Notes under the pieces: model-generated
The model's database searches: none
Told to the model about the DNA's origin: nothing
Seen by the model: only the letters and a program-made list of their open reading frames with translations
Virus record (IMG/VR): IMGVR_UViG_3300013936_000007
Coordinates: 1-34,515 of that record
Length of the DNA: 34,515 nucleotides
From: a virus
Strand: one strand, 5' to 3'
In this document: positions 3,846-34,435 of the stretch, in pieces
Numbering within the stretch: the stretch's first letter is position 1
Layout of the letters: each line of letters begins with the position of its first letter
Translations under genes and position numbers: made by a program

Positions 3846-3862
3846 AGCTTAATTCCTCACTT

Positions 3863-4357
3863 TCATTTCGTTGCCTGATTAAACCAATCCGCAAACTGGT
3901 CTCGTGTGCTGCCGGTCGGCTTGGCCTGAGGGTCGCCGCCATCCCGGATTACGGTTCCGCCGCTGACCGGCTTGGCATAGTCCAGGATCGCCTGGGCCTG
4001 AGCCTTGCAGCTGTCCTCATCCTCTCCATACAGCAGGCTTGCCGGCACGCCGGTTTCCTTACTGACCTTCTCCCGGATGCTCCGGAGGTTGTCGGCCTTG
4101 GTGTATGCATCCACCTGTGCCTGAAGCGCTGCAACTTTCTCCGTGGCCTTCTGGAGGTCGGTTTTGTCTGCCTCCTGAGCAGCGTCATACTTCGCAGCCT
4201 TCTCCTTGAGGGCTGCATAATCTGCGTACTGCTCCCGCTCCCGGCTCAGCCGATCCGTAACGATGGCGTTCAGTTCCGACTGGGTGAAAGTACGCTCCTG
4301 GGTTCCGGCCCCAGTGCCGCCGCTTGTGATTTCCTGCTTCACAGTTTCTTTTTCCAT
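3863..4357 (-). CDS. capsid scaffolding protein
   Basis: 164-aa charged, coiled-coil-like ORF (..SELNAIVTDRLSREREQYADYAALKEKAAKYD..) directly upstream of the capsid gene, with RBS AAAGGAGA. Confidence 0.75.
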   Translation of the reverse strand: MEKETVKQEITSGGTGAGTQERTFTQSELNAIVTDRLSREREQYADYAALKEKAAKYDAAQEADKTDLQKATEKVAALQAQVDAYTKADNLRSIREKVSKETGVPASLLYGEDEDSCKAQAQAILDYAKPVSGGTVIRDGGDPQAKPTGSTRDQFADWFNQATK

Positions 4358-4710: not shown

Positions 4711-4780
4711 GATCCCCCGAAGGGGACAGCGAAGCGAATCGAACCTCTGCTAATTTGGCGGGGGGGCGGTTCGCTTTTTT
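4711..4780 (+). ncRNA. candidate ~70-nt antisense small RNA
   Basis: Lies between the orphan promoter and a T6 run at 4775..4780 preceded by CGAACC...GGTTCG pairing. Contains a CCCC-CGAA-GGGG hairpin. It is antisense to the MuF-to-membrane-gene intergenic mRNA. Confidence 0.3.
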
Positions 4781-5972
4781 AATATCTTCTCACGGATGCC
4801 AGTTTCCCCTTGCTCAGCACAAGGATATCTACGTTCCCGTTCGTTTCGTACCATCCCATTCGTTTATCCACCACAGACCAGAGCTTTTCCTCGGAGAATT
4901 CCAGGTCTCCAAGATCGAGGATAATGCCTCCGGGGTTCGCTTGAATTTGCGCGAATCCATGGCGCACAGCGGAGTTCGCAGCCTTTTCGCTGGAGATGGT
5001 TTTGAGGTCCCATAGTTTTTCATTCCACAGGTAATCCGGCGTTTTTACCTTATCTTCGTTGGCTTCCCGCAGCAGCGTGACGTCTCCACCCAGGTTATCA
5101 TGCAGCCACTGTGCAATCTTGACTTCCTCCGGGTGGGTGCCTTCTTGATATCCATCTCCCAAAACGATGGATCCACTTCCAGGCTTCGCGGCCTTTATGT
5201 ACTCAGCCGTAACGCTTCCGCGCGTAGCCCGAAGCGTAATCGTCTTCGCGCCGCTGGCTTCCAGGGCCTTTCTGGCGTGATAGGCTTCCCGCTGTTGGGC
5301 GTTCACCAGCTCCTTGTTCTCCTCCCGCTGCGCCCGGCGCATGGAGTTGATTTTCTCGCTGGGTGTGCTGCCCTCAGCGTTTTCGTACATCCGGAGGTAC
5401 TTGTCCGGATCATACCCGGCCACATTCGTTCGAGACGAAAATCGGATCGCATAGTTGCACTTGCAGTGGGCGTGAATGTGCTGGGCGTGGCCGTTTTTAA
5501 TGGCCTTTTTGCTGGCCCGCTGCCAGCCCCGACTTGCCAGGGTCAGGCAAAAGGCACATCCCAGGCCGCCGGGGATCCAGGCGAATTCCGCCCCGTCCCG
5601 CAGCGCGTTTTTCAGGATGGTGTCCGCACCGGCCTGCTTCACCAGGCGGCTGGTGGTGCCGGAGATCTGCGGTGGACTGCTAAGTGTGCTGTAAATGGCC
5701 TTTGCCACCTCTGCCATACTGGGCGGCTGGGCAGGCTCTGCCGGGCTGACGGTCACGCCCTCCGCCGCTGCCAGCTCATCGTACATCTGGGCTGCCAGTT
5801 CCGCGCTACCTTCGCCGTATTTGGTCACCAGGGCATTGGCGTAGACGATCAGGCCCTCGGTGTCCTCCGTTCCGTACTTGGCAATATACTGTGCCATGGC
5901 GTCCCCGGCGCGTTTGTCCAATTTGGACAGCCGCTGGACGTAATTACTCCAGTCCCGCTCCGAGATTGTCAT
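4779..5972 (-). CDS. MuF/SPP1 gp7-like head morphogenesis protein with C-terminal PD-(D/E)xK nuclease-like toxin domain
   Basis: Located after the portal gene. The central Cys/His cluster GCAFC...HAHCKC is typical of MuF-like minor capsid proteins. The C-terminal ~140 aa carry E..(n)..TPDYLWNEKLWDLKT, matching the PD...(D/E)xK pattern. Confidence 0.65.
   Translation of the reverse strand: MTISERDWSNYVQRLSKLDKRAGDAMAQYIAKYGTEDTEGLIVYANALVTKYGEGSAELAAQMYDELAAAEGVTVSPAEPAQPPSMAEVAKAIYSTLSSPPQISGTTSRLVKQAGADTILKNALRDGAEFAWIPGGLGCAFCLTLASRGWQRASKKAIKNGHAQHIHAHCKCNYAIRFSSRTNVAGYDPDKYLRMYENAEGSTPSEKINSMRRAQREENKELVNAQQREAYHARKALEASGAKTITLRATRGSVTAEYIKAAKPGSGSIVLGDGYQEGTHPEEVKIAQWLHDNLGGDVTLLREANEDKVKTPDYLWNEKLWDLKTISSEKAANSAVRHGFAQIQANPGGIILDLGDLEFSEEKLWSVVDKRMGWYETNGNVDILVLSKGKLASVRRY
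5915..5929. repeat. dispersed palindrome copy 2: TGTCCAATTTGGACA (perfect)
   Basis: Inside the MuF-like gene; translated as L-S-K-L-D-K. Confidence 0.95.
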
Positions 5973-6261: not shown

Positions 6262-7663
6262 CGTCAACGTCCTCGTTGTTCAGCTCCGTCAGCACCTTCT
6301 GCCCCCTGACCCGCTGTTCCTGGGCGCGGATCCTCCGGATGTCCGCCTGGTCAAACCCGATCATCTCGAGAAAAGTGTCGGTAGACGCGAATTCCTGCCT
6401 CGCGGAAGCGATTTTGATAGCGGCATCCGCGGTCACGGCCACGCTGGGCATAGCTGGATTTTTGAAATGCGCCACGATGTCCTGCTCAGCGTCCTCCAGC
6501 GCATCCAGACTGCAATTCCGGGCAACCGCCTGCGCCATCAGTGCAATGGTCTTAAGGCTGTCCCCATTGCCGGAGTTCAGCTGCTGGGCCATCAGCACCA
6601 GCGTCTGGCTTTGAGCGAGGATTGCGTCCGAGCTGGTGGGGTTGGCGTCGTTGATAATGCCCACATCCGTCACGGTCAGCCCGGTGGCAGCAGAAAACTG
6701 CGTCGCCACCATCCGGAGCTTGTCCACATGGGGGCTGAGACTGCCCTGGGCGAGCTGGCCGAAGGTCGGATTTTGCCCGGTCTCCGGGTTCTGCGTCGCG
6801 GCGATCAGGCTGCCCATGTACTGCCGAAACTTGTCCGACATAATCACGTCATACTGCTCATCCGTAACACCCAAAAGGTACTTCTGCGGCGTGGTATCAA
6901 ACTCCAGTGCAATGGTGGCGTTGGCAAGTACCCGGATATAGTCGTCGATCAGCGTCCGGATGGGGTATTTCAGCCGGGAGCGTCCAAAGGGTTTCCCGTT
7001 GGTAGCATTCCATACCAACGGCTCCATGATCGGTCTGCCGATGCTGTGCGCCAGCCGTGTTTTTACGTTCCACCCACTCGGCGTGCGGCTGAGCACGATA
7101 ATGGCTTTGTCGGTGTAGAGATTCACCAGGGACGGCGTCCAGCTGTCCTTATATTTTTCGTCCTTCGCGGTGTCGATGATTGCCAGACCGCAGGATATGC
7201 GCCCTTTGTCGCCGTCCCACAGCGCCGATGCGGTGGCGGGACTGTGCCAGCGGATCTTGCACCCCAGCTCATCATCCGGCGACAGCGTAGCAAAGACACA
7301 GCCGTATTTCAGCTCATCTCGGCACGCCTTTTGGTACTCTGCTACCATACGGTTTTTCTCGATGATCTCAGTCAGCGCCGTGGTGTCATTGCCGTTCGCG
7401 CCCACAAAGCCGTCAAACATGGACCGGGCAGCCAGCACATCCACGGCGGTCTGGCCCCAGTTACACCCGACCGCCAGCCGTCCCAGCCCGTCCGGGAGCG
7501 CAATGCCGATGTTGACGTCCCGCAGGGTGACCTGCCCCTCATAGTACTTGTCTTTGGTGGCATTTTTACTCTGATGGTAGTTATACACGTCGGCAAGCTC
7601 CACCAGCTGCTGCTGTTCCGCGTCATTCAGCCCCTGGACACGTCCAAAGTTCAAACTTGTCAT
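6242..7663 (-). CDS. portal protein
   Basis: 473-aa ORF directly after the large terminase, with RBS AAGAAGGTGA. Confidence 0.8.
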   Translation of the reverse strand: MTSLNFGRVQGLNDAEQQQLVELADVYNYHQSKNATKDKYYEGQVTLRDVNIGIALPDGLGRLAVGCNWGQTAVDVLAARSMFDGFVGANGNDTTALTEIIEKNRMVAEYQKACRDELKYGCVFATLSPDDELGCKIRWHSPATASALWDGDKGRISCGLAIIDTAKDEKYKDSWTPSLVNLYTDKAIIVLSRTPSGWNVKTRLAHSIGRPIMEPLVWNATNGKPFGRSRLKYPIRTLIDDYIRVLANATIALEFDTTPQKYLLGVTDEQYDVIMSDKFRQYMGSLIAATQNPETGQNPTFGQLAQGSLSPHVDKLRMVATQFSAATGLTVTDVGIINDANPTSSDAILAQSQTLVLMAQQLNSGNGDSLKTIALMAQAVARNCSLDALEDAEQDIVAHFKNPAMPSVAVTADAAIKIASARQEFASTDTFLEMIGFDQADIRRIRAQEQRVRGQKVLTELNNEDVDDGNHSS

Positions 7664-18111: not shown

Positions 18112-18149
18112 AGTTAAGGAAATTGCTTAACTTAGTTATATTATTAACT
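18112..18149. promoter_or_regulatory. candidate operators of the genetic switch (AGTTAAG-N7-CTTAACT and AGTTA-N6-TAACT)
   Basis: Two adjacent palindromes sharing the AGTTA/TAACT half-site, in the 149-bp divergent intergenic region. Confidence 0.5.
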
Positions 18150-18227
18150 CACTTTTTTGAGATTGTCAAGCTATTTTCTCATTTTAGTAAGAAGTTTAGC
18201 ACATTGCACAAAAAGGGAGTGATAATT

Positions 18228-18581
18228 TTGTTTTGGGAACGTTTTAGCCAACTATGCGATGAGCATGGAATTAAGCCGAATCCATTAGCCAAAGAAATCG
18301 GCATTTCTTCCGGTATCATCACAAAATGGAAAACAGCCGGAACACTGCCGAACGGAGAAACGCTTAAAAAATTGGCAAGCTATTTCGGTTGCTCTATTGA
18401 TTATCTCCTTGGGCTTTCCGGAGATGCAGAAAAATCCCCTTTCGTTTCGGAAGAGGATCAGGATCTGCTAAATACGGTTCACCGGCTGGATGCACGGGAT
18501 CAAGGCAAAGTGTTGGGCTATGCCGAAAGCCTTCTGTCTGCCGAGAAGTACTTGGCGAAAGACGGATTCAAAAACGCTTGA
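18228..18581 (+). CDS. CI-like XRE-family repressor
   Basis: HTH NPLAKEIGISSGIITKWKTAG. The probable TTG start at 18228 lies 8 nt after AAGGGAG; the longer ORF from 18123 is hydrophobic junk. Confidence 0.7.
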   Translation: MFWERFSQLCDEHGIKPNPLAKEIGISSGIITKWKTAGTLPNGETLKKLASYFGCSIDYLLGLSGDAEKSPFVSEEDQDLLNTVHRLDARDQGKVLGYAESLLSAEKYLAKDGFKNA

Positions 18582-19830: not shown

Positions 19831-20235
19831 TCAGCCGATTCCCAGTTTGTTTCTCAGTGCATCCTGGAGCACCTGAGAAAAGTTCAGTGCATTCTTTTCC
19901 GCCAGATCGTTCAGCCAAGCCGGAATCGACAGTGTTTTCTTTACCGATTTGCTTTCGTAGAATCGCCGGTACCAGTCTGTATCACAGGACACCAGCGAAA
20001 CGAACGCATCGTTATCATGGGCAATTTCGTTCACACCGGAGGGCTCCGGAATCGTTTCCCCCTCCTGCTCCATTTCGTACAGGGTTAAGCACAAAACATC
20101 GTTTGCCATTTCAAGTCCTTCCTGAATGGATGCCGCGCTGGTATAGCAGCTTTCCAGATCGGGGAAGGAAATCGAATACCATTCGCCCTCCTTCTTGAAG
20201 ACGGCAGGATAAGCATACTTCGCCATATCTATCAT
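19831..20235 (-). CDS. hicB: HicB-family antitoxin
   Basis: 134 aa. The N-terminus YAYPAVFKKEGEWYSISFPDL is a HicB-like fold and the C-terminus is a DNA-binding-like tail. The gene lies directly downstream of hicA. Confidence 0.85.
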   Translation of the reverse strand: MIDMAKYAYPAVFKKEGEWYSISFPDLESCYTSAASIQEGLEMANDVLCLTLYEMEQEGETIPEPSGVNEIAHDNDAFVSLVSCDTDWYRRFYESKSVKKTLSIPAWLNDLAEKNALNFSQVLQDALRNKLGIG

Positions 20236-24832: not shown

Positions 24833-24962
24833 CGCTGTTTTCCTCCTCCGTTTTCACGCCCAAAACATTGAGCGCCTCGGCCATCTGGGCACGTTCCGCT
24901 GCCTCAGTGGCGGCTTCGGCATTCGTCTGGGCGCGGTTCCGCACATATTCCATAAGCGTCAT
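24822..24962 (-). CDS. 46-aa XkdX-like small ORF (tentative)
   Basis: Translated by hand as MTLMEYVRNRAQTNAEAATEAAERAQMAEALNVLGVKTEEENSDER. RBS GGAGGTGG. ATGA overlap with the upstream stop. Confidence 0.4.
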   Translation of the reverse strand: MTLMEYVRNRAQTNAEAATEAAERAQMAEALNVLGVKTEEENSDER

Positions 24963-25909
24963 TCGCCATCCACCTCCACAATTACAGCGGGCTCGCCGCA
25001 TACGGCTCTACCTCCACTTTTGGCATAGATCTTAACTCCCAGCTGCCATTTGTCGGTTTCCTTGGTCTCATTCGGCAAATCCACCGCAACACCGTTCTGG
25101 CACTCGACCCATGCAGGGTTGTCGTCGCCTGCGTTGTTTGATAAGTAGATTTGACTTTCCGTAGCATTCGTGATCTCAACCTCGACTTTGGCTCTCTTAA
25201 GTCTGGTATCAGTCTCGCCGCAAATCACGGCGTACTTCAACTCTCGGTACAGATGTGTCACGTCAGGTAGGATATAGATTGTGTCCTCCCCAAGGTCGGA
25301 CACCATTGTGGCATTTGCCACCTTAAAAGCGGGGCGCGGGCAGTAACCGGCGACGGACGCGCCGTCGCTGCTGAGACCGCCGTTGAAGTAGACGAAGCGC
25401 ATCCGCTCGGACGAGCCCGCAGACCGCAGCCACCAGTAGACCGCACTGCCAGCAGAATTATAGGCAATTCTGGCTGTATTGTCGTTCGTGGTGTTGTCCC
25501 GGTGAGTCTTGAGCGCAGATAGAATGCTGTCACCCTCTGCACCACCAGCTGCGATAACCTCGCTCTCGCTGAGTAGAAATGCTTGCCGTGCAATTTCGGC
25601 CACATCGGTAGCATCATAGGGTTTAACCTTGATCTGTGTAGGAATAATGCAAGCCTGCATTGGTGCATCAAAATAAGAGAGATACCCGCCGTCAGTATTA
25701 TTGAGCCACGCGTCCATCTCACTGTCGATGTAGGCAGCTACATTCGTGGGGTTGATTCTCCGTCCGGCCAACGTCTCAGCTCGAAGCAGCACTACGCCGT
25801 CGGAATCCTTACGGATTGGCCAATATTTTACGGTTGTGGTCACGCCGTTGACGGTTTCCTCGTACCACAGTTCCTCCGAGAGATCAATCGTTTCAATCGC
25901 TCTTGCCAA
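24959..25909 (-). CDS. DGR target (variable) protein, putative receptor-binding protein
   Basis: TTG start at 25909, 9 nt after AAAGGAG. Contains the VR. The FLLSESEV...YWWLRSAGSS...CPRPAF pattern resembles lectin-fold-type DGR variable regions. Confidence 0.85.
   Translation of the reverse strand: MARAIETIDLSEELWYEETVNGVTTTVKYWPIRKDSDGVVLLRAETLAGRRINPTNVAAYIDSEMDAWLNNTDGGYLSYFDAPMQACIIPTQIKVKPYDATDVAEIARQAFLLSESEVIAAGGAEGDSILSALKTHRDNTTNDNTARIAYNSAGSAVYWWLRSAGSSERMRFVYFNGGLSSDGASVAGYCPRPAFKVANATMVSDLGEDTIYILPDVTHLYRELKYAVICGETDTRLKRAKVEVEITNATESQIYLSNNAGDDNPAWVECQNGVAVDLPNETKETDKWQLGVKIYAKSGGRAVCGEPAVIVEVDGE
25308..25321 (-). other. hairpin GTGGC-AAAT-GCCAC 7 nt downstream of the VR
   Basis: 5-bp stem and 4-nt loop. 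A second inverted repeat, GTGTCC-N11-GGACAC, is at 25281..25303. Confidence 0.4.
25329..25452 (-). repeat. DGR variable repeat (VR)
   Basis: 124-bp match to 27021..27144 at a constant offset of 1692. There are 19 mismatches, and 18 are at TR adenines on the coding strand. Confidence 0.9.
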
Positions 25910-26957
25910 TTATTTCAACTCCTTTCATTGTTGTTCTCGTTCGATACCCTGCTTTTTTCAAAAGCAGGGTAAAATGTCTATCCATCTCGATTGCTACATT
26001 TCGGCACCCGGCACGCAGAACTCGTTGTCTCCAGCCTTGATACCTCAGCTGTACTTGTTCCGGAGTCAAATTCCCATTCGCCAGCTCACGCACGACCATT
26101 TTCAGCTCACGTTTCTTTGCCTTTTTCTTGCCATTTTGTAACCTCACAAGGGATATTCCGCCATCGGTCAAAATGTACGTAAAGCCAAGATAGTCCACGC
26201 GCCCGCGCTGGATCGTCGTCTTTGGGTTCAGCTCCAGCCCGATCTCCGCAAGGTGCTTTTCGATAACTCCCAGTAAGTGCTCCAGCTCCTCTCGGGTCGG
26301 TGCAATCACGTAGAAATCATCCATATGGCGTCCGTATAGTTGGTAGCCGTAGTCCTCGGTTATCAGCTGATCCAGCGTCTCTAGATACAGGTTCCCATAG
26401 CATTGGCTCTGCTGTAGCCCTAGAGGCATTCCGACAGGCGAATCATTATATTGGATATACGCCCTGCTGATCCGCAGAATATCCGGGTCTGTGATAACCT
26501 CCTCGGCCAGCCGAACCAGACGCTCCCGTGAGACGGAAGCGAAATAAGAATGAATGTCGCCTTTGAGAATCCACGGAGTTTCATGGCTTGCGTGCCAGTA
26601 ATCGCGCAGCAGCTTTGTAAGTCTTGCAGTACCGTATTCGGTGCCCCGCCCGATCAAACACGCGGAGATACCATCGCCGAGACGTGAAGCCACAGCTGGG
26701 TAAATCGTGTTGTCGCACAGTGCGTGCATGATGATCTTGTCGCGCACGGTTGGCACCTGCGCGATTCTCGGTTTGGGGACGTCGATGCGAATCAAGCCCA
26801 TAGGCAGCGGCTTAAAATCTGGGGATGCAAGCTGCTGCCGAATTTTGTAGATGTGATCATCGAGATAGTATTCGTATCGCTGGTACCTGTCCAGCGCAGT
26901 TTTCCCACGCCTGACCTCACGCCAGGCGTTTTCTATTTGTGCATAGGTCGGTATCAT
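25893..26957 (-). CDS. DGR reverse transcriptase
   Basis: 354 aa with LGLQQSQ (the [LIV]GxxxSQ motif characteristic of DGR RTs) and YGRHMDDFYV (YxDD box). Confidence 0.92.
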   Translation of the reverse strand: MIPTYAQIENAWREVRRGKTALDRYQRYEYYLDDHIYKIRQQLASPDFKPLPMGLIRIDVPKPRIAQVPTVRDKIIMHALCDNTIYPAVASRLGDGISACLIGRGTEYGTARLTKLLRDYWHASHETPWILKGDIHSYFASVSRERLVRLAEEVITDPDILRISRAYIQYNDSPVGMPLGLQQSQCYGNLYLETLDQLITEDYGYQLYGRHMDDFYVIAPTREELEHLLGVIEKHLAEIGLELNPKTTIQRGRVDYLGFTYILTDGGISLVRLQNGKKKAKKRELKMVVRELANGNLTPEQVQLRYQGWRQRVLRAGCRNVAIEMDRHFTLLLKKAGYRTRTTMKGVEIIGKSD

Positions 26958-27020
26958 ATATACCTCTTTTTAAGGGGCAGCTTCCTTTTCACGGGCTTCG
27001 TCATCTAAGTTTCCGTCAGA

Positions 27021-27144
27021 GCGGGGCGCGGGCAGTTTCCGGTGTTGGACGCGTTGTTGCTGTTGAGATTGCCGTTGGAGTTGACGTAGCGCATCTGCTC
27101 GGACGAGCCCGCAGACCGCAGCCACCAGTTGACCGCACTTTTAG
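27021..27144 (-). repeat. DGR template repeat (TR)
   Basis: Intergenic between avd and the RT. Read in the target frame it gives the Asn-rich AVNWWLRSAGSSEQMRYVNSNGNLNSNNASNTGNCPRPA. Confidence 0.9.
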
Positions 27145-27158
27145 GCTGCCCCTGTGTC

Positions 27159-27539
27159 TTATCGTTTTGCGTCGGCTTGCGCCCACGCATAGATTTTCCA
27201 GTACAGCGAGACAATTAATTCTTGCCATCGGGCACGCTGTTTCTCGCTGATATAACCCTTTTCATACAGGTTTCTCGCTTGGTGTTTCAACACAACCAAC
27301 TTTCGTAAGGCCTCTTGCTGATGCTCCACTCGGGCAGTTTTAGATGTCCTTAGATCGGTCTCGTTTGCCAGGATAACAGATTCCTGCACTGCGCAAGCAG
27401 CTAGTATGATTCTGTCAGCGAGACTTCGGTGTAGCCGCTTGGGAAGGCGTGGCTTGGGAGACTCCCTGTCGCACATGTCCAGTGTTAGAAGCAGGAGATC
27501 ATCCGCCATATTGCAGATCGCAAACTCGCCCTGAATCAA
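27159..27539 (-). CDS. avd: DGR accessory variability determinant (Avd-like four-helix-bundle protein)
   Basis: About 126 aa, helical and basic, immediately upstream of the TR. The TTG at 27539 overlaps the fibre gene stop (TTGA); an alternative ATG is at 27509. Confidence 0.7.
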   Translation of the reverse strand: MIQGEFAICNMADDLLLLTLDMCDRESPKPRLPKRLHRSLADRIILAACAVQESVILANETDLRTSKTARVEHQQEALRKLVVLKHQARNLYEKGYISEKQRARWQELIVSLYWKIYAWAQADAKR

Positions 27540-28513
27540 GAGACGACCACCCGGGAGTATTTATCCACAGCACCAGAGGTGACGGTTATGGCGTCATGCG
27601 CGAAATCTGCGACAAAAACATTGACGGCATTGAGATCGGTGCCTCCGGGCATATCCGCAGAACCCCAAGCGGTAGGCTTGCCGTTGGAATCTACTGCGGT
27701 GATGACGGGGATCTGGCCGACGGTTGCACCGGCAATCTCCATTCCCGCTCCGCTGGGACCGACATCGCCCTTGAGCGCAAGCAGCTGCCACTCATCGTCA
27801 ATTCCGGGGACGGCCCCGATTGTTGGCACTGTACCGGCGTATACGTAGCTGCTTCCGTCGTAGCTGACCGCATCCATGCGGCTATACTGGGCCGTAGAAC
27901 TGTATGCCCCATGCCAGTTAACGGATGTTCCATCAAACTCGCCGGACGCTTTGGCCTGGGCTAGGACGGCGTCGGTGGCGCTCTGAAGCCCGTCTCGGGT
28001 AATGTAATCCCCTTTGGGCTGCTTGCCATCGAACAGGGGCTGTAACGCATCCTGGACTTCCTCCCAGGCGCTGTCCACGGCGGTGGCTACATCGTCGGCG
28101 GTTGCAGCACCCACGTCTGTTGCACTAAGCTCGACGTCTCCCTGTTTGCCATTGACAGAGGTTACGCTTCCCTTGACTCCGTCCTGTTCCAGCGTCTCGA
28201 TGCGCTTTTCCAGCTGCCCCCACGTCTTGATTTCGGTGGGGGTATAGGCGTATCCATCGGGTCGCGGGCGGGCATGTACCTCAATCTTCGCCTCGTCCAG
28301 CGTGTGATCGGGCTTGTACGTCCACAGCCGGATGGTGTCGGTTGTCCACATTAGTTCCGGCGGGATCTCTACCTGGCCGTCCTTGGCGGCCACAGGCTTA
28401 TTGGTGGGCCAATACCTAAAATGTACTTCCGTCACGTCCGCCGGGACGCTGATGGTGATATCCGCATCCCACTGGTATACATGGTCCTTGCCGTTCGAGA
28501 GTTTGATTTCCAT
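27536..28513 (-). CDS. tail fibre protein
   Basis: Start refined to the ATG at 28513, with RBS AAAGGAGTG. SVNGKQGDVELSATDVGA is a fibre-type motif. Confidence 0.7.
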   Translation of the reverse strand: MEIKLSNGKDHVYQWDADITISVPADVTEVHFRYWPTNKPVAAKDGQVEIPPELMWTTDTIRLWTYKPDHTLDEAKIEVHARPRPDGYAYTPTEIKTWGQLEKRIETLEQDGVKGSVTSVNGKQGDVELSATDVGAATADDVATAVDSAWEEVQDALQPLFDGKQPKGDYITRDGLQSATDAVLAQAKASGEFDGTSVNWHGAYSSTAQYSRMDAVSYDGSSYVYAGTVPTIGAVPGIDDEWQLLALKGDVGPSGAGMEIAGATVGQIPVITAVDSNGKPTAWGSADMPGGTDLNAVNVFVADFAHDAITVTSGAVDKYSRVVVS

Positions 28514-28527
28514 AGCTTTCACTCCTT

Positions 28528-29772
28528 TCACGCCGTGCGCAGCAGCTTCGGGACCCACAGATCAGATCCGCTGTACGCCGATCCAGCCGGCGATGCTGAA
28601 ATATAAAAATTGCAATAAAAAGACATTGGTTCCGAGATGGAAAACGTCGCGCCGTAGCCCTTCTCCCACACATGATCCTGGGTCTGGGTGACCGTCGTGG
28701 GGGCGGAGGTGTACTTCGTGGAGGTGTATCCGGTCACCAACGACGTAATAGACCGTCCGTCACTGGGATACAATCGGATGCCCCAATAGGAGTAGTCCAC
28801 CCGGGCACGGCGATCTTGATACGCCGGGGTTCCGGACAGATGATAGGTGCCCGCAGGCAGATAAAGGGGATAATTGGACGACACCAGCGGGAGGACGGTG
28901 GCGGCGGTGGCCCCTGAACAAGCGGTGGTTACGCCGTCCTCCGAGGCCGTGGCCGTAACCCCGGAGGCGTAGGTTTTCCTGTCTCCGAAGATCCACGGAT
29001 AGGCCAGATAGTTGTAATTCGGGTCGAATGTGTACGTCTGCTGTGGAATTTTTTCGTAGTCGGGACGGGCGAAAAAGACGATATCCGCGTTGCGGTTGGC
29101 GTAATTGGTACGCACCACCGTATTGGGAATGTCGGTTACATTAAAATATTGGTCAATGTTGGTTGATACAATCGACACGTGAGAAATCGACAGGAACCGG
29201 CTGTTTTGTTTGGTGGAGTGGAAAATTAAATCCCCAGGTTTCCGCAAAGATGCGTCCGTAAAGGCCCGTCCGGCGGCCCAATAATAGGCAGCCAGATCGG
29301 CGGCGTAGCGCACCATCCCGCCCAGGGTCTGGCTGGATCGGATGTGGTCGTCCGCCCAGGTGTAAGTGGTATTCGTACTTAAATTCGATGCATTGTAAGT
29401 AGCATTTGCGCTTGTGTTAACATAGGGACTTTTTTGGTACGGAATGCCGCGCATCACCAGGTGGATATACGTGGAGCAGTCGATGAGCCCCTGCCCAGAC
29501 GCATTGTTCAGCGGCGCGCCGTCCAGGAACGTTGCGCCGCCGGAATAGACGAACTTCCGGCCCGAGGCCCGGGCGATCCAGTAGCTTTTGGCCACGTCCA
29601 CGGCCTCCAAAGCCCTTGGCTCGCAATAGGTTAAGGCTCCGTCGGCCCAGCGATAGCGCCTGAGCTGCTGGATTTTCGTTGCAAACTGCGAGGCCTGGAT
29701 CGGGTCGGAGGTACCGTTGCTGCCGCGAATGGCGAACGCAATGGCGGAGAGAAAATTTTCCTGCTTGCTCAT
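28528..29772 (-). CDS. tail protein with NlpC/P60-like cysteine peptidase domain
   Basis: GLIDCSTYIHLV is a candidate catalytic Cys context; PGDLIFH...ISHVSIV is a candidate His context. Confidence 0.55.
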   Translation of the reverse strand: MSKQENFLSAIAFAIRGSNGTSDPIQASQFATKIQQLRRYRWADGALTYCEPRALEAVDVAKSYWIARASGRKFVYSGGATFLDGAPLNNASGQGLIDCSTYIHLVMRGIPYQKSPYVNTSANATYNASNLSTNTTYTWADDHIRSSQTLGGMVRYAADLAAYYWAAGRAFTDASLRKPGDLIFHSTKQNSRFLSISHVSIVSTNIDQYFNVTDIPNTVVRTNYANRNADIVFFARPDYEKIPQQTYTFDPNYNYLAYPWIFGDRKTYASGVTATASEDGVTTACSGATAATVLPLVSSNYPLYLPAGTYHLSGTPAYQDRRARVDYSYWGIRLYPSDGRSITSLVTGYTSTKYTSAPTTVTQTQDHVWEKGYGATFSISEPMSFYCNFYISASPAGSAYSGSDLWVPKLLRTA

Positions 29773-30957
29773 TTAATAGCTCGCCTCCCATGTCGATACC
29801 ACTGCCGCCTGAATCTGCTGGGTCACATAGGCCTGCGTGGCATATCCGCTCAGCTCGGTTTTGGTCGATGCGCTGATACTGGCCGAAGCCCTCTGCACGT
29901 CCCGCTTGCTGGCGGTGCGGTCAACCCGCCGGTGGTAGCTGGCAATCATTTGGTTGTACGTCTGCTTTGCATACCCAATGTCGATGCTGTCATACTGTTC
30001 ACGCAGCACATCATACGCAGTCTTAGTAACCTTTGCCGTGGCTGACACGCCGATCTGCTCAAAATATACCGTCACCGTATCGCAGATTGCAATCTGCTCA
30101 ATCTGTCCAATTTTGACAAATTCCACGGTCAGGCTGACCGTGGGCACGCCAATCTGGTTTGATGTCATGTAGGCCTGAGCCCTTGTGCGCAGCTGATCCT
30201 CAGTCGGCGCATTCTCCCATTCCGTACTGAGGTCAAGCGGTAAAATGCGCGTCACCGGGTACGTGCCCTCAGCGTTGATCACTTTTTCGGTCAGCTGTAC
30301 CAGCGTGCCATCAGTGCCTCGCCAATAGGGGTATACGCCGGTGTAGACGTTGGCGCACGACTGCTCCTGCTTGAGATCGGTCAGGTTTTTCCCGTACCGG
30401 ATCACAACGCCCCGGTCCTTCCCCCGCTCCTTGTGGAGGGTAACAGAAAAACGGTTAAACTCATACTCGCCTCCATACACGTCCAGGATCCCGCCCTCGC
30501 TACCTCCCAGTAGGCTCCAGATGGCAGTAGGCACATCCACGGTCATGGTAGCAACGGTTTCCTTGTCCGTGCTAAAGGTGTACGGACAAGTCACCGCAGC
30601 ATTGGCCGTCAGCTTCTGCATGGCCTCAGCAGCGGACGTAGATGTAAATGGCTTAACGGGTATCCCCATCAAACCGTAGGCAATGTGACGCGCGTAGACG
30701 GTCACAGTGCCCGACATTGGCTTGGAGATATCATAGATGCGAAACGGCTGGTTGCGGCTCAGCTCGTCCGGCTTCGACAGAATGATCCGTTGGAGTGTGA
30801 TATCGCTGTAATGGATCCCCTGTACTGGGTACTCCATTTCCAACTCGTAAGAGCCGTTCCGCTCCTGGGTCACGACGCACGTAATGGCGTCAGTCAGGAT
30901 CCCGAGGCCGTTGTCCGAGTACGAAGTCTCCGTCTCCGCGTAAAGTATTGGCTTCAT
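29773..30957 (-). CDS. tail-associated protein (Tal / prophage tail endopeptidase-family N-terminal domain)
   Basis: Start refined to the ATG at 30957 (ATGA overlap with the Dit stop). The N-terminus MKPILYAETETSYSDNGLGILTDAI...ERNGSYELEMEYP is typical of Tal. Confidence 0.75.
   Translation of the reverse strand: MKPILYAETETSYSDNGLGILTDAITCVVTQERNGSYELEMEYPVQGIHYSDITLQRIILSKPDELSRNQPFRIYDISKPMSGTVTVYARHIAYGLMGIPVKPFTSTSAAEAMQKLTANAAVTCPYTFSTDKETVATMTVDVPTAIWSLLGGSEGGILDVYGGEYEFNRFSVTLHKERGKDRGVVIRYGKNLTDLKQEQSCANVYTGVYPYWRGTDGTLVQLTEKVINAEGTYPVTRILPLDLSTEWENAPTEDQLRTRAQAYMTSNQIGVPTVSLTVEFVKIGQIEQIAICDTVTVYFEQIGVSATAKVTKTAYDVLREQYDSIDIGYAKQTYNQMIASYHRRVDRTASKRDVQRASASISASTKTELSGYATQAYVTQQIQAAVVSTWEASY
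30104..30118. repeat. dispersed palindrome copy 9 (degenerate): TGTCCAATTTTGACA
   Basis: Inside the Tal gene, in the second frame (F-V-K-I-G-Q). Confidence 0.7.
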
Positions 30958-31691
30958 AGATGCCACCACCTTGGTGTGATCTCCACTTTGGTGATATCTC
31001 CCGCCCAAAATATCGTGGTATCGCCGTGGGGAAGTGTCGGGAATTCAAGTGCCTGAATGTTTGCGTTCCAGTTGACGGTTGCGCCGCCCAAGCCGCTGAT
31101 CTTGTAAGCGTTTTGCGTCTCGCAATCCAGGATCAGCGGCGGTGTTGGCGTCAACCCCTTAATGCTGACAATCGTACCCCCGACATCCAAAAAACCGTTC
31201 CCGGAGCCATACACCCGGATAAGGGGCCGAGCTTCCATCCAGGCGTTTTGCAGCACGGTCCCGCTGGTGACTTCAAATGTCTCCTGTCCGGCATCGGTGT
31301 ACACCTGAGGCATACAGCCAAACTCCAAGGCAAAGGCGCGGATGCTGTCGGACAGGCACTCCACACCGGGGGCATTTGTCACATACGCCGTCCGGAATCC
31401 GTCCTCCCACGGAAAACGCAGCTGCCGGTATCCGTTTGTCCCCAGCAGCCACTGGGAGATGCCCGCCACCTTGTCCTGGACGTTATCTCCAATCACAAAG
31501 CACTCCGCCGAGAAGCCGACGTTTGTGAAGCTGCCCTCATAGTGCAAAAGATCCCCGCTCCGACCCGGAACGGAGATCTTGTCCACATTGGGCTGAGCGC
31601 CCCCGATTTTAATCGCGCTTTTGATATAGATGCCATGGGTGCGGCTGTCTACCCCATCATAAGTAAAATACTGCGTATTTTTTGCGGTCAT
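30954..31691 (-). CDS. distal tail protein (Dit)
   Basis: 245 aa directly after the tape measure (ATGA overlap). Contains FTYDGVDSRTHGIYI...ISVPGRSG. Confidence 0.7.
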   Translation of the reverse strand: MTAKNTQYFTYDGVDSRTHGIYIKSAIKIGGAQPNVDKISVPGRSGDLLHYEGSFTNVGFSAECFVIGDNVQDKVAGISQWLLGTNGYRQLRFPWEDGFRTAYVTNAPGVECLSDSIRAFALEFGCMPQVYTDAGQETFEVTSGTVLQNAWMEARPLIRVYGSGNGFLDVGGTIVSIKGLTPTPPLILDCETQNAYKISGLGGATVNWNANIQALEFPTLPHGDTTIFWAGDITKVEITPRWWHL

Positions 31692-34435
31692 AATGCCGCC
31701 TCCTGTCTCTCGTAATCTCGCTCCAGCAGCTCCATGATGGCTTCGGCCAGCTCCATCTTACTGCGGTAGTCGCTGCCGTTGACGTTGATGGTGACGCCGG
31801 TCATCCGTGCCAGCAGAGCAATCAGCCGATCCAGCTTGGCTTCCAGCGCCGAGGTGCTGCCGGACAACTCGCCGCCGACGGCCCCGCGGATCATACCCAT
31901 CAGGGTTTTGGCGCCGCTGACAACCTCATCACCGGCCTCGCCGCCGCCCAGAAGATTTCCACCGGCTGCGCCGAAGATGGTAGGGCTCCGCAACAGTATG
32001 GGCGTGGTCATGGCCTTTGCGTACCAGCTAATCCCAAATTTCGGGACGCTGGGGGGCGAAATTGAGAATTTGCCAGAGATGCTGATATGCGGCAATTTTA
32101 GACTTGGCAGGCTCCAAGTAAAATTAAATTTCGCCTTGATCGCCTCAATGGCGTTGTGTACCGCGTTTTTCGCAGCCTGAATTTTATCGGAGATCGTGGT
32201 CTTGATGCTGCTAAAAATACTGACCACCGTGGTTTTTGCGGCAGTCAGCGAAGTGGAGATGTTGGTTTTGATGGCAGTAAATTTATCCACAACACCTGCC
32301 TTGATGGTTGCGGCAGTGCTTGCGATGCTGCTGGACATTTCACTCCATTTGGAGGATGCGCTGGCCTTCATCGCCTCCCAGCTTGCAGCCACATTGTCTC
32401 GCAGTGTCGTTACGTACGGTCCCACCTTGCCCCAAAGTGCGCCGAAGGAATTCTGAAAAATCGCAGATACGCTGTCAAGAGACGTTGTGGCAGAGTCAAG
32501 CAACCCTTGGGCAAATCCGTCAAAATCCCCCTGAAACAGGGCCACAAAGGCGCCGAAGGTGTCGGAGATTGCCTTAAAGTTGTTAGAAAATACCGTCTTT
32601 ACATTTTCCCACACTGCGTTAAGCAGTGTGCCGCCTGTGGTGGCTTTGTCCACCAGCCAGCCAATCACATCAGCAATCCCGTTGATCGCTTCGCTGATCG
32701 CCAGCACCACGGATCCAAACAGATCCGCCGCCAGCTGCCAGGCGTTGGAGAATAGGCCACTGCCCTCTTCGCTGTCGCTGACAAAAAAATCAAACACAGC
32801 AACAATTCCGTCAATTACTGCGCTAATCCCAGCTCCAATGTTTGAGATTGCCGTTTTTAATGCACTCCAGGCAAAGTTGATCGTGGTGCCCTCCGTGGTA
32901 AACTGAGTTGCCAGCCAGCTCACGGTGTTGCCGATCGCGGAGATCGCGGTTTGGATAACACTCCATGCCGCGCTGACTGCGTTGGGAATTACGTTCCAAA
33001 CAGAATTTAGAATCGTGCCGTCTGTTGTGGTTTCCTCCACGACCCATGCAATGGCGTCAGCGATCCCGGTAATCACGCCGCTGATAATGGCAGCGGCAGC
33101 GGAAATCCCGGCTGCGATCCCGTTCCATACATCTGTCCAGGTAATACCGGCATCTGCCATGATTGCATTGACGGTATCGTGCACCGTGCCGAAGGCATCA
33201 CCGATACCCGTAAATATCGTCTGGCAGCCGTCCAGCAGCGACTGGAGCACGCCCATAATGCCGTTCGTTGTGGTCTCAGACAGGCCCAGCCCATTGGTGA
33301 GCACCGTCTGGATGGCATCCATGGCGGTCTGAATCAGTGCCGGGCCGCTGCTGATAATCGCCCCGGCGAACGCCGAGATCAGAGACACACCAGCCTCAAT
33401 CATGGCTGGGAGTACCGCCTGTACCAGTACGGGCATAGCCGCTGTGATGATGGGCGCCATTCGGGTGACCAGCTGCCCCGTACCTTCCAGGATCGTTTCC
33501 AACCGCGGCAGAATGTTGTAGGCGGCAGTTGCGGCGGACGATACGAAGTTATCCATCAACTGATCAAAGTCCTGAGTGTCATCCGCCACGCCAACCATCA
33601 GATTTGTCCAGGCCGCTTTCATTGCGCCCACAGAGCCCTGAATGGTGGTACTGGCCTCCTTGGCAGTGGTGCCGGTGATGCCCATCTCCGTCTGTACCAG
33701 ATGGATGGCTTCCACGATGTCTGCAAAGGACTTAATGGAGAGGTTCGCAGTCTCGCCGTTCGCTTTTTTGAGCTTATTGGCGTCCTTGATCAGCCGTTCC
33801 ATCTCCTCCTTGGTGCCGCCGTAACCTAGCTTCAAGTTATCCAACATGGTATAGTTTTGTTTGGCAAAACCTTGATAGGCATTTTGGATATCCTGCATAT
33901 TGGTGCCCATTTTGTTGGCATTGTCGGACATATCCACAAGTGCCTGGTTGGCATATTCGGCAGCCTTTCCGGTGTCGTTGTTCAGGCTCTGGAGCAGCGA
34001 TGCAGAAAAACTCGTAACAGTCTCCATGTAGTCGTTTGCGGACAATCCGGCGCTCTGGAACGCTTGATCTGCATACTGCATGACAGTACCAGCGGCATCG
34101 CCGAATAGCGTCTCAACGCCGCCCACCAGCTGCTCATAATCCGCATAGGCGTCCAGCGCTTTTTTCGAAAATGCAGCGATCCCCGCCGAAGCAGCGCCAA
34201 GCCCGGCAACTCCGGCTGTGGCAGCGGCCTTGAACGCCGTGCCCACAACCTTGGACGCTGACCCCATTGCGGTCTTCAGCCCTTTCACCAGCGCATTACC
34301 AGAGCTCTGACCGGCGCTTTTCCCCGCACTGGTTGCCTCGCTACCTAAGATGCTGCTCAGCTTGCCCTTAATGCCCTCAGCAGACGGGATAATTTGCACA
34401 TATGCCTTTGCGATACTGGATCCAGCCATCGTCAT
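31688..34435 (-). CDS. tape measure protein
   Basis: 915 aa, Ala/Gly/Ile-rich and helical, between the chaperone genes (across the circular junction) and Dit. Confidence 0.9.
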   Translation of the reverse strand: MTMAGSSIAKAYVQIIPSAEGIKGKLSSILGSEATSAGKSAGQSSGNALVKGLKTAMGSASKVVGTAFKAAATAGVAGLGAASAGIAAFSKKALDAYADYEQLVGGVETLFGDAAGTVMQYADQAFQSAGLSANDYMETVTSFSASLLQSLNNDTGKAAEYANQALVDMSDNANKMGTNMQDIQNAYQGFAKQNYTMLDNLKLGYGGTKEEMERLIKDANKLKKANGETANLSIKSFADIVEAIHLVQTEMGITGTTAKEASTTIQGSVGAMKAAWTNLMVGVADDTQDFDQLMDNFVSSAATAAYNILPRLETILEGTGQLVTRMAPIITAAMPVLVQAVLPAMIEAGVSLISAFAGAIISSGPALIQTAMDAIQTVLTNGLGLSETTTNGIMGVLQSLLDGCQTIFTGIGDAFGTVHDTVNAIMADAGITWTDVWNGIAAGISAAAAIISGVITGIADAIAWVVEETTTDGTILNSVWNVIPNAVSAAWSVIQTAISAIGNTVSWLATQFTTEGTTINFAWSALKTAISNIGAGISAVIDGIVAVFDFFVSDSEEGSGLFSNAWQLAADLFGSVVLAISEAINGIADVIGWLVDKATTGGTLLNAVWENVKTVFSNNFKAISDTFGAFVALFQGDFDGFAQGLLDSATTSLDSVSAIFQNSFGALWGKVGPYVTTLRDNVAASWEAMKASASSKWSEMSSSIASTAATIKAGVVDKFTAIKTNISTSLTAAKTTVVSIFSSIKTTISDKIQAAKNAVHNAIEAIKAKFNFTWSLPSLKLPHISISGKFSISPPSVPKFGISWYAKAMTTPILLRSPTIFGAAGGNLLGGGEAGDEVVSGAKTLMGMIRGAVGGELSGSTSALEAKLDRLIALLARMTGVTINVNGSDYRSKMELAEAIMELLERDYERQEAAL

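Follow-up and report, generated by a model that had tools for sequence, protein, structure and literature searches.

A probable active diversity-generating retroelement in the tail module of a gut phage, with differing variable repeat alleles and two covarying RNA helices around the template repeat

Organisation of the element

The window analysed here is the whole of IMG/VR virus record IMGVR_UViG_3300013936_000007 (34,515 nucleotides), a contig of a temperate siphovirus-type phage with close relatives in gut Oscillospiraceae-type genomes. No deposited phage with DNA similarity to the contig was found, and the relatives with a reverse transcriptase (RT) identity of 65–93% all came from metagenome contigs or MAGs. 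An element at 24959..27539 on the minus strand contains, in the order avd-TR-RT-target, the genes and repeats of a diversity-generating retroelement (DGR), and all of its ORFs are intact (Table 1). The cassette makes up the distal end of a tail module that includes the tape measure gene, a tail protein gene and two fibre-like ORFs, with holin and endolysin genes directly next to it on the other side, in agreement with a preliminary description of this DNA that had embedded a complete DGR in the tail-fibre module. The parts named there (RT, Avd, TR/VR, IMH/IMH* and hairpin) were each tested, and nearly all hold.

Table 1. Features of the retroelement, in window positions
Feature	Position	Strand	Remarks
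avd	27159..27539	-	126 aa, basic (pI 9.3); PHROG phrog_3206 'Avd protein of DGR', E = 1.4e-10
Helix P1, 5' arm AGGGGCAGCCT	27143..27153	-	Between avd stop and TR; candidate strand of a 'cPRT Stop' duplex
Template repeat (TR)	27021..27144	-	From alignment and repeat search; secure exchanged core 27021..27139
IMH* region	27013..27035	-	GC block CTGCCCGCGCCCCGC, then TCTGACGG, unlike the VR side
Helix P2, 5' arm GACGG	27013..27017	-	3' end of TR/IMH* region; candidate template strand
Spacer (Sp) RNA	26958..27012	-	Between TR region and RT start; ends with the RT ribosome-binding site
Helix P2, 3' arm CCGTG	26990..26994	-	Pairs with 27013..27017; AAAAGG next; candidate primer strand
Helix P1, 3' arm AAGCTGCCCCT	26973..26983	-	Pairs with 27143..27153; invariant TTAAAA next
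DGR reverse transcriptase	25893..26957	-	354 aa; LGLQQSQ, HMDD; Pfam RVT_1 E = 8e-16; PHROG phrog_1423 E = 9e-71
Target	24959..25909	-	316 aa; TTG start; overlaps RT stop by 17 nt
Variable repeat (VR)	25329..25452	-	Target residues about 154–193; secure core 25329..25447
IMH	25321..25343	-	GC block CTGCCCGCGCCCCGC, then TTTTAAGG
Post-VR hairpin GTGGC-AAAT-GCCAC	25308..25321	-	In the minimum-energy fold; within the target coding sequence

The RT contains the two motifs originally reported for it, LGLQQSQ ([LIV]GxxxSQ) and YGRHMDDF. Its best sequence match in the PDB was the BPP-1 enzyme bRT (8ub7_A, E = 3.5e-19), with group II intron RTs behind it. Two of the group II intron RTs among these matches are deposited as 'retron-type'. 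A full-length BLASTP alignment with Brt (24% identity, E = 9e-25) had the motifs in register, and the nearest RTs from deposited phages, those of nd12 and Faecalibacterium phages, were about 30% identical. An RT of another class (group II intron, retron, Abi or DRT) accompanied by a coincidentally adenine-biased repeat appears so improbable as to be negligible. The top NCBIfam model was indeed that of a group II intron RT/maturase (E = 3.5e-24), followed by Drt and retron models with lower scores, and some phage records call homologues 'retron-type', but all of the NCBIfam matches lie far under the curated cut-offs (for example, 85.6 bits against 300 and 45.7 against 200). Furthermore, the best solved relative is a DGR enzyme with which the [LIV]GxxxSQ motif aligns, an Rfam search detected no intron RNA and no retron msr/msd family, and the adenine bias of the repeats (p = 3e-13) recurs independently in relatives. 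Sequence comparison thus supports grouping this RT with those of DGRs.

The ORF upstream of the RT had been described as Avd-like, helical and basic, which is borne out by its PHROG profile match, its predicted four-helix fold and its pI. The match to the NCBIfam model DivGenRetAVD (E = 9e-6, 25.9 bits) was under the cut-off of 80, and a homologue in nr that is 72% identical is named 'Avd-like protein'. An AF2 model predicted a four-helix bundle (pLDDT 89.8) for which Foldseek returned BPP-1 Avd (4dwl and 8ub7 chains B–E; TM-score 0.68–0.83, prob 0.99–1.00) as well as the fold relatives 2gsc and 2rld. A sequence-level match to BPP-1 Avd (Bbp7) was not found.

Template and variable repeats and their alleles

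A pairwise alignment of TR and VR reproduced every number in the preliminary description. The 124 bp pair aligns without gaps at a constant offset of 1692 with 19 mismatches, and 18 of these are at TR adenines (minus strand). Changes are therefore found at 18 of the 29 TR adenines against 1 of the 95 other positions (Fisher p = 2.9e-13), the single exception being a C to T difference at TR position 66. An unguided repeat search of the window recovered the identical pair. With adenines masked, the VR matched 108 nt of the TR with one mismatch, where 0 matches are expected by chance, and a third copy was not found in the window by the adenine-masked search. On retranslation, the peptides previously read from TR and VR were both correct, and the TR is intergenic as stated, starting 15 nt past the avd stop and ending 63 nt short of the RT ATG.

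The TR adenines fall at codon positions 1, 2 and 3 in 14, 13 and 2 cases, respectively (27 of 29 in positions 1–2), and include those of nine AAY codons. The pair starts with five positions (CTAAA in the TR, CTGGC in the VR) that are probably flanking and outside the exchanged sequence. The GG on the VR side is fixed in all alleles and in the relative L006, the AAA on the TR side is the sole stop-capable TR codon, and the CT with which the TR starts belongs to helix P1 (see below). For these reasons, the secure core was set at 119 nt, in which 15 of 16 mismatches are at A and no stop can arise.

At the 3' ends of the repeats, the proposed IMH/IMH* pair was recovered, with the GC block common to both and then the differing tails listed in Table 1. 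Each tail is largely conserved from lineage to lineage, as GCTC..GG AAACT on the TR side and GCTTT.... on the VR side, and the two remain different; after the VR, GCTTT is invariant in 10 lineages and GCTTTTAAGG itself is present in four of the 10. The small hairpin reported 7 nt past the VR was also found, with a 5 bp stem. Across 10 lineages, 84% of cells were paired and one of the pairs occurs as G-C, C-G and U-A, while the folding energy alone was not significant (z = -0.1). Canonical DGR hairpins have a GC-rich stem of 7–10 bp and a GRNA tetraloop and lie 4–34 bp from the VR (PMC3240598). The hairpin found here, with its 5 bp stem and a loop of AAAT (GAAT or GAAC in relatives) that is not GRNA, is weaker.

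Activity was assessed by comparing the window with four near-identical copies, giving five assemblies from different metagenomes. Three VR alleles in all were found among these contigs, and the TR was identical in every copy that covers it. Sixteen of the 18 variable VR columns are at TR adenines; two VR changes, at C66 and T56, are not at adenines. Contig L153 differed from the window at 17 positions over 2074 nt, and all 17 are inside the VR. In L106, there were 18 differences over 2713 nt, including 12 within the 96 nt of the VR that it covers. L154 and L155 had only two VR differences, and both of those in the L154 allele are at A positions on the 5' side, which is not what one full homing event should give. 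Only two of the amino acid differences among full-length target proteins clustered at 90% are outside residues 168–189. The pattern extends to the clade, in which L089 and L090 have identical RTs and TRs and VRs that differ mostly at A positions. The non-A differences between the TRs of the window and L006 are mirrored in the respective VRs, indicating that TR-to-VR copying has occurred since these lineages split.

It could be argued that the element is a decaying or inactive relic in which the TR/VR differences are old, and that the repeat gave rise to the apparent alleles as errors of assembly. Assemblers do break or mis-join at this repeat, and many 1.7 kb contigs of relatives span TR to VR. 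One contig (P0264) is a chimera with the 5' part of a VR and the 3' part of a TR, and in one relative (L105), which looks decayed, just 9 of the 24 mismatches are at A. However, the cassette ORFs here are all intact, and the allele shared by L106 and L153 includes bases absent from both the TR and the window VR (GG at 56–57, GG at 68–69, GT at 80–81, T at 89 and G at 108), so it cannot be a TR/VR chimera. Two unrelated samples gave the same assembled sequence for this allele, and flanks that are 99.8–100% identical border a VR that differs at 17 of 124 positions. We therefore consider a relic very unlikely. A monomorphic VR beside a decayed TR, which had been put forward as a finding that would count against a DGR, is the opposite of what was seen across metagenomes, where the TR was invariant and the three VR alleles differed at TR adenines. 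These differences between metagenome assemblies support ongoing mutagenic retrohoming, and the minus-strand element is, with high confidence, a complete DGR that has been active as this phage lineage spread.

RNA helices around the template repeat

An alignment of the spacer from 16 lineages revealed the conserved blocks AAACT, GAAGCCCGYG, AAAGGAG and CCCTTAAAA, which are invariant although the RTs share just 65–93% identity. Unlike in BPP-1, a stem-loop just downstream of the TR was not found in this lineage in the spacer alignment. Two helices that pair the spacer with sequences in or beside the TR, designated P1 and P2 (Table 1), were examined across the 16 lineages. Compensatory changes were found in five of the ten pairs tested in P1 and in three of the five pairs of P2, for which 98.8% of cells were paired. 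Taken jointly, 95% of cells were paired, compared with 37–50% in slid controls, eight of 15 pairs had compensatory changes, and the covariation score was reached by none of 500 shuffles. RNAalifold independently predicted both helices and added one further pair to P1, extending it to 11 bp. In the window itself, P2 forms four of its five pairs and P1 has one C.A mismatch.

A similar arrangement is known from BPP-1, where the DGR RNA includes a template:primer duplex (Sp47-56:TR117-129) and an avd:Sp 'cPRT Stop' duplex with adenosines next to it, and matching RNA duplexes were predicted in 207 of 278 Avd-containing DGRs (bioRxiv 10.1101/2023.10.23.563531). By analogy, P2 would match the template:primer duplex and P1 the cPRT Stop duplex, and both roles are candidate assignments. 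Together with the evidence of activity from the VR alleles, the two covarying helices around the TR are new relative to the preliminary description.

A possible course of events can be proposed. The avd-TR-RT-target region would be transcribed from the minus strand, and the RNA from about 27153 to 26973 would fold such that P1 clamps sequences just outside the TR to the spacer and P2 joins the 3' end of the TR (IMH*) to the spacer, the covariation of both helices being as described above. If P2 acts as in BPP-1, the RT-Avd complex would self-prime cDNA synthesis there, and P1 would end the cDNA at the 5' TR boundary. The pattern of mismatches is that expected if the RT copies the TR faithfully save opposite adenines, an enzymology that we infer. 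Replacement of the VR by the cDNA would follow, with the GC-rich IMH, and perhaps the small hairpin as well, serving as a guide. As 27 of the 29 TR adenines are in codon positions 1–2, mostly in AAY codons, each event could re-randomise up to about 18 residues between 158 and 189, in the DUF6273 domain of the target.

The target protein and relationship to known DGRs

The N-terminal part of the target (aa 38–197) is a C-lectin-like DUF6273 domain (Pfam E = 5e-25) with the VR inside it, and the DGR rewrites a stretch of about 40 residues of this lectin-like putative surface protein. Hypervariable columns were concentrated in the VR in an alignment of 57 homologues. The AF2 model (pLDDT 93) has a C-terminal seven-stranded beta-sandwich (residues about 205–316, about 115 aa) for which no Pfam match was found and to which the Ig domains of nd12 were not aligned by hhalign. 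Foldseek matched the model to 9qa6 (E = 1.7e-8), an IgA peptidase of T. ramosa in which a DUF6273 forms the N-terminal domain (PMC12402451), and to gut-phage DUF6273 proteins. In hhalign, the target aligned with aa 124–272 of the nd12 'tentaclin' (95.6% probability, E = 1e-8), and the WWLR motif and VR of the two proteins were in register. This supports homology to a known DGR target.

The element resembles the prototype, BPP-1 (mtd-avd-TR-brt), in the full-length homology and motif 4 of its RT, the predicted four-helix-bundle Avd fold and the TR between avd and RT. Both also have TR/VR differences specific to adenines, a GC-rich IMH whose IMH* counterpart diverges, a hairpin past the VR, though a weaker one here, one TR:spacer and one upstream:spacer duplex, and a location between tail-fibre and lysis genes. 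The departures are minor. The target follows and overlaps the RT here, whereas the BPP-1 order is target-avd-TR-RT, and the VR is mid-gene (residues 154–193 of 316) rather than C-terminal. The spacer is very short at about 55–63 nt, compared with 144 nt from TR to brt in BPP-1, and the hairpin has 5 bp and an AAAT loop instead of 8 bp and GAAA. The DUF6273 target has no detectable sequence link to BPP-1 Mtd.

Parallels were also found among gut phages. Phages nd4 and nd12 include DGR cassettes in which the targets are 'tentaclins' (Baykov et al. 2023, PMC10743442). In that of nd12, the local order is the same: the RT is preceded by a 128-aa ORF and an intergenic gap, and followed by a DUF6273 target overlapping the RT stop and by lysis genes. 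However, the nd12 RT, the nearest among deposited phages, is just 31.6% identical, and the 128-aa ORF upstream of it has no profile similarity to the Avd found here. In addition, nd4 and nd12 each have two targets, of which target1 is 569–579 aa with three Ig-like domains, compared with one target of 316 aa and one beta-sandwich here, and both are small myoviruses, whereas a long tape-measure gene is present here and a sheath gene was not seen in the part of the contig examined. The Faecalibacterium prophages Roos, Pioen, Lelie and CP11 (PMC11792537) are likewise gut Clostridia phages with DUF6273 DGR targets. In these, the VR is at the C-terminal end of the DUF6273, and activity was also deduced by comparing cognate genomes, between which the VR varied and had lost adenines (PMC11792537). 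The RTs of Lelie and of the Faecalibacterium phages FP_Brigit and FP_Toutatis are about 29–31% identical to that found here. This DGR cleanly exemplifies a system that was already known from related gut phages.

We infer that the target is the receptor-binding protein of the phage. The element may instead be a real DGR whose target is an accessory adhesin (a tentaclin or Hoc-like decoration) that attaches to ligands other than those of the host, such as mucus glycans or immune molecules, a possible though somewhat doubtful reading. It would be consistent with the tentaclin topology of an N-terminal DUF6273 followed by a beta-sandwich, the authors of the tentaclin study having proposed binding to bacterial receptors or to intestinal or immune cells (PMC10743442), and with an IgA peptidase from a gut bacterium providing, in its N-terminal domain, the closest solved fold. 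Separate tail-fibre-like ORFs upstream (27536..28558 and 28528..29772) could also encode the primary receptor-binding proteins. The best PHROG match of the target is annotated 'Hoc-like head decoration' (phrog_10993, E = 1.4e-18), but this label is an annotation only and the target lacks a Hoc-type array of Ig repeats. The position of its gene, which ends the tail module beside the fibre-like genes as mtd does in BPP-1, argues against an accessory adhesin. If the target were an accessory adhesin, diversification would tune where the virion sticks and not which bacterium is infected. The ligand to which the virion attaches, which may be a bacterial receptor or something else, is most likely altered by diversification of the target.

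Cassette components and the TR/VR repeat pair

The reverse transcriptase (RT) matched Pfam RVT_1 and PHROG phrog_1423 (E = 9e-71). In a comparison with all PDB sequences its top match was 8ub7_A (E = 3.5e-19); a query with the protein encoded by brt in NC_005357 confirmed this entry as the BPP-1 RT (bRT or Brt). Group II intron RTs, of which two carry the deposited label 'retron-type', ranked below it. The pairwise alignment with Brt was full length at 24% identity (E = 9e-25), with GMPLGLQQSQ opposite GIPIGSLTSQ and HMDD opposite YMDD, and the RT scored far under the cut-offs of the NCBIfam group II, retron and Drt models. An exact look-up of the RT protein returned no identical record. The closest genome match was to an Oscillospiraceae MAG (68% identity), with remoter relatives across gut Clostridia, and relatives at 65–93% identity were found in metagenome contigs and MAGs only. 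A viral-contig scan with the single RT sequence returned 31%-identical loci only and its repetition with an alignment was no better; the informative relatives came from look-ups of contigs encoding identical proteins and from a metagenome scan. The cassette DNA had no match in 50,697 deposited phage genomes, and relatives in deposited phages were found at the protein level only, at about 30% identity.

The Avd-like ORF, which is basic (pI 9.3), matched the PHROG family 'Avd protein of DGR' (E = 1.4e-10) and, weakly, the NCBIfam Avd model (25.9 bits, cut-off 80). No sequence- or profile-level similarity to the BPP-1 accessory protein Avd (Bbp7), to PDB entries or to the 128-aa ORF of the gut phage nd12 was detected. 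The AF2 model is a four-helix bundle (pLDDT 89.8), for which Foldseek returned the pentameric bundle proteins 2gsc and 2rld first and BPP-1 Avd next (4dwl and 8ub7 chains B–E; TM-score 0.68–0.83, probability 0.99–1.00). What identifies this ORF as an Avd is its PHROG match together with its predicted fold.

Features of the cassette and of the surrounding phage genes
Feature	Coordinates	Strand	Remarks
Tape-measure protein	31688..34435	minus	
Tail protein	29773..31008	minus	
Avd-like ORF	27539..27159	minus	126 aa
Stretch between Avd-like ORF and RT		minus	201 nt, intergenic
P1 5' arm	27153..27143	minus	AGGGGCAGCCT; immediately 5' of TR
Template repeat (TR)	27144..27021	minus	
P2	27017..27013 with 26994..26990	minus	last bases of IMH* region with CCGTG
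P1 3' arm	26983..26973	minus	AAGCTGCCCCT; just ahead of RT ribosome-binding site
RT	26957..25893	minus	354 aa
Target ORF	25909..24959	minus	316 aa; TTG start; 17-nt overlap with RT stop
Variable repeat (VR)	25452..25329	minus	
Post-VR hairpin	25321..25308	minus	GTGGC-AAAT-GCCAC
HicB-like antitoxin	19831..20235	minus	PHROG E = 2e-39
Repressor-type regulator	18123..18581	plus	
397-aa protein	4779..5972	minus	

The repeat pair reported in the preliminary description, which had proposed a complete diversity-generating retroelement (DGR), was reproduced exactly by pairwise alignment, gapless and at an offset of 1692, and was also recovered by a separate repeat search of the window. The adenine bias claimed there held, with 18 of the 19 mismatches at TR adenines (18/29 A; Fisher p = 2.9e-13) and only one of the 95 non-A positions differing in VR; both peptide readings quoted for TR and VR in the target frame were correct on translation. 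TR adenines fall at codon positions 1, 2 and 3 of this frame 14, 13 and 2 times, respectively, and nine codons are AAY. When all TR adenines were replaced by N, the pattern matched TR and VR alone in the window (for VR, with 1 mismatch in 108 nt; chance expectation none), and there is therefore a single target in the window. A 340-aa upstream ORF, considered as a second target as in nd12, contains neither a DUF6273 domain nor a VR. The first five positions of the repeat (CTAAA in TR, CTGGC in VR) are probably flank, because the VR-side GG is the same in all alleles and in a sister lineage, AAA is the sole TR codon mutable to stop and the TR-side CT belongs to an RNA helix. The secure TR/VR core spans 119 nt and contains 16 mismatches, of which 15 are at A. 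A promoter and terminator scan of the cassette found nothing over background that would delimit a separate TR transcript.

VR alleles in related contigs

Copies of the window's element were recovered from other assemblies via the metagenome scan and exact-protein look-ups. TR was invariant across all contigs covering it and three VR alleles were found in total, with 16 of the 18 variable columns at TR adenines; the other two were a T adjoining an A (TR position 56) and C66. Position 56 is changed from T to G, directly beside a mutated A, in the allele shared by contigs L106 and L153, while C66 (window VR 25386) is changed from C to T in the window allele. All alleles, and the related locus L006, carry a fixed A to T change at TR position 14, by which Asn becomes Tyr in AVYWW. 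The L106/L153 allele includes bases found in neither TR nor the window VR, and its assemblies from two unrelated samples are identical; mis-assembly between TR and VR is therefore impossible. Within the 90% cluster, the amino-acid differences between full-length members were located at residues 168–189, with two exceptions.

Copies of the window's element in other assemblies
Contig	Assembly	Aligned (nt)	Differences from window	Differences in VR
L153	ERZ27300197	2074	17	17
L106	ERZ808240	2713	18	12 (96 nt of VR covered)
L154	ERZ26858192	6951	16	2
L155	ERZ26858472	2268	6	2

The allele of L154 and L155 differs from the window VR only at 25404 and 25407 (TR positions 48 and 45, 5'-side adenine sites), and 14 other A-substitutions are common to both. 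One complete homing event with its anchor at the IMH (the block at the 3' end of VR) would not leave this two-site difference, which could stem from patchy conversion, from recombination between alleles or from repair.

The wider clade behaved likewise. L089 and L090 have identical RTs and TRs, but their VRs differ, mostly at A positions. Between the window and L006 (RT 93% identical), the non-A differences in TR are mirrored in the respective VRs, and TR-to-VR copying has therefore occurred since these lineages split. By contrast, in L105 (RT 69% identical; TR 3815–3936, VR 5513–5634) only nine of the 24 TR/VR mismatches are at A, and its RNA helix P1 contains two mismatched pairs; this is probably a DGR that no longer works and is drifting. 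In L009 (Oscillospiraceae MAG CAKTZN010000001; TR 5808–5898, VR 7516–7606), the homology extends over 91 nt only and a GC-rich IMH is absent on the VR side; the target has apparently had its 3' end replaced or truncated. DGR repeats visibly harm the metagenome assemblies here. Many contigs of ~1.7 kb start in TR and end in VR (L008, L094–L097, L148 and L150) because assemblers break at the repeat, and one further member of the 90% cluster (protein P0264) is a chimera of the 5' part of VR and the 3' part of TR (...CPRPALTET).

RNA helices and the VR-side site

The region bounded by the avd stop codon and the start of the RT was aligned for 16 lineages with RTs 65–93% identical. AAACT, GAAGCCC, AAAGGAG and CCCTTAAAA were invariant, and two helices, P1 and P2, were predicted around TR and the spacer. 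Together, these had 95% of cells paired compared with 37–50% for slid partners, a control favoured by the helices having first been spotted by eye in the same sequences; the compensatory double changes, found in 8 of the 15 pairs, are independent of that. The covariation score was matched by none of 500 shuffles, and the same two helices were predicted independently by RNAalifold. A candidate pairing of AAAGGAG with CTCC just upstream of P2 was rejected, being inconsistent across lineages and, through the invariance of AAAGGAG, yielding no covariation signal. An Rfam scan of the window gave no match, a tRNA scan found none, and the TR/spacer RNA belongs to none of the curated RNA families.

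The cryo-EM structure of the BPP-1 system revealed a TR:Sp template:primer duplex, in which A56 of the spacer (Sp) primes cDNA synthesis, and a second duplex, avd:Sp 'cPRT Stop', which has adenosines after it and just ahead of which cDNA synthesis ends (bioRxiv 10.1101/2023.10.23.563531). P2 and P1 correspond to the template:primer and cPRT Stop duplexes, respectively. P1 adjoins the 5' limit of TR/VR homology, in keeping with a stop function.

The spacer in the window lineage is short (55–63 nt). In sister lineages (e.g. L112, L110, L108, L105, L147, L152 and L009), a tetraloop hairpin such as CCTCC-GGAT-GGAGG is inserted between AAACT and GAAG (alignment A4 columns 161–181), and it is missing in the window, L006, L099, L107, L109, L149 and L151. 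This hairpin may be the counterpart of the BPP-1 Avd-binding stem-loop; most DGRs that contain an Avd were predicted to have an Avd-binding stem-loop directly downstream of TR. One tentative and rather doubtful reading is of a pared-down DGR, in which an RNA of ~180 nt (27153..26973; the 119-nt template and ~55–63 nt of spacer, with the primer and stop duplexes only and without the stem-loop just downstream of TR) would be sufficient for self-primed, adenine-mutagenic cDNA. Its target would be a 'mini-tentaclin' of one beta-sandwich, whose gene has VR, IMH and hairpin all within the coding sequence and whose ligand is perhaps not the bacterial host.

On the VR side, GCTTT follows VR in 10 of 10 lineages, four of which retain the full GCTTTTAAGG, whereas the TR side reads GCTC..GG AAACT. 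The post-VR hairpin occurs in the minimum-energy fold, with a folding energy that is unremarkable and no better than that of shuffled sequence. One of its pairs is found in three types (G-C, C-G and U-A), at the cost of amino-acid changes. The hairpin is shorter than those described for phage DGRs, which have 7–10 bp and a GRNA loop (PMC3240598).

The target, the phage and known systems

The target carries a DUF6273 domain at residues 38–197 (E = 5e-25), with VR (residues about 154–193) at its C-terminal end, and a beta-sandwich is predicted for about 120 further residues (AF2 pLDDT 93). For the whole-protein model, the closest solved structure found by Foldseek was 9qa6, an IgA peptidase of Thomasclavelia ramosa (E = 1.7e-8 over 282 aligned columns), and many gut-phage DUF6273 proteins were also returned. 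The N-terminal domain of this peptidase is DUF6273 (PMC12402451), so that one fold is common to a hypervariable domain of a phage and a domain of an IgA protease from a gut bacterium. A profile of 57 target homologues aligned to target1 of nd12, a tentaclin, over the WWLR motif and VR (95.6% probability), and sequence and profile comparisons with BPP-1 Mtd and all PDB sequences gave no match. In the 57-sequence alignment, hypervariable columns were concentrated in VR and the remaining protein was well conserved. The diversified protein may be the one that binds the host receptor; that it is instead an accessory adhesin is a live alternative.

The window contig is a temperate siphovirus-type phage. 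The minus-strand order is tape measure, tail protein, two fibre-like ORFs, DGR, two small ORFs, holin and GH25 endolysin, and beyond the lysis genes are a plus-strand integrase, then the repressor, HicB-like protein and replication genes. The stretch at 18–20 kb near the integrase, with the HicB-like antitoxin and repressor-type regulator, is lower in GC (43–47%). Elsewhere, the 397-aa protein contains a VG15 phage-protein domain (Pfam E = 1e-46) and a C-terminal CdiA_C contact-dependent-inhibition toxin domain that is barely over the cut-off (E = 4e-6, 27.3 bits), giving the impression of a toxin-like tail on a phage protein.

Compared with the BPP-1 prototype, the cassette has another gene order, a mid-gene VR, a compact spacer and a small hairpin. 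Variant cassette orders are not unusual in DGR surveys. The local order is that of nd12, with an avd-sized ORF, a gap, the RT and an overlapping tentaclin gene. DUF6273-target DGRs of gut Clostridia phages have been described before, for Faecalibacterium prophages (PMC11792537) and for tentaclins (PMC10743442). The element belongs among these known DUF6273-target DGRs of gut Clostridia phages and is itself new.

The general understanding of DGRs is unchanged by this element. It contributes a DGR that is well documented and demonstrably active, from a clade of gut Clostridia phages not yet in culture, and its unusually short TR-plus-spacer RNA could interest DGR engineers working on directed evolution. 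The covariation, coming from a distant Bacillota phage clade, is independent support for the template:primer and stop duplexes of BPP-1, and the three VR versions on one backbone form a natural allele series that is usable to probe the DUF6273 ligand.
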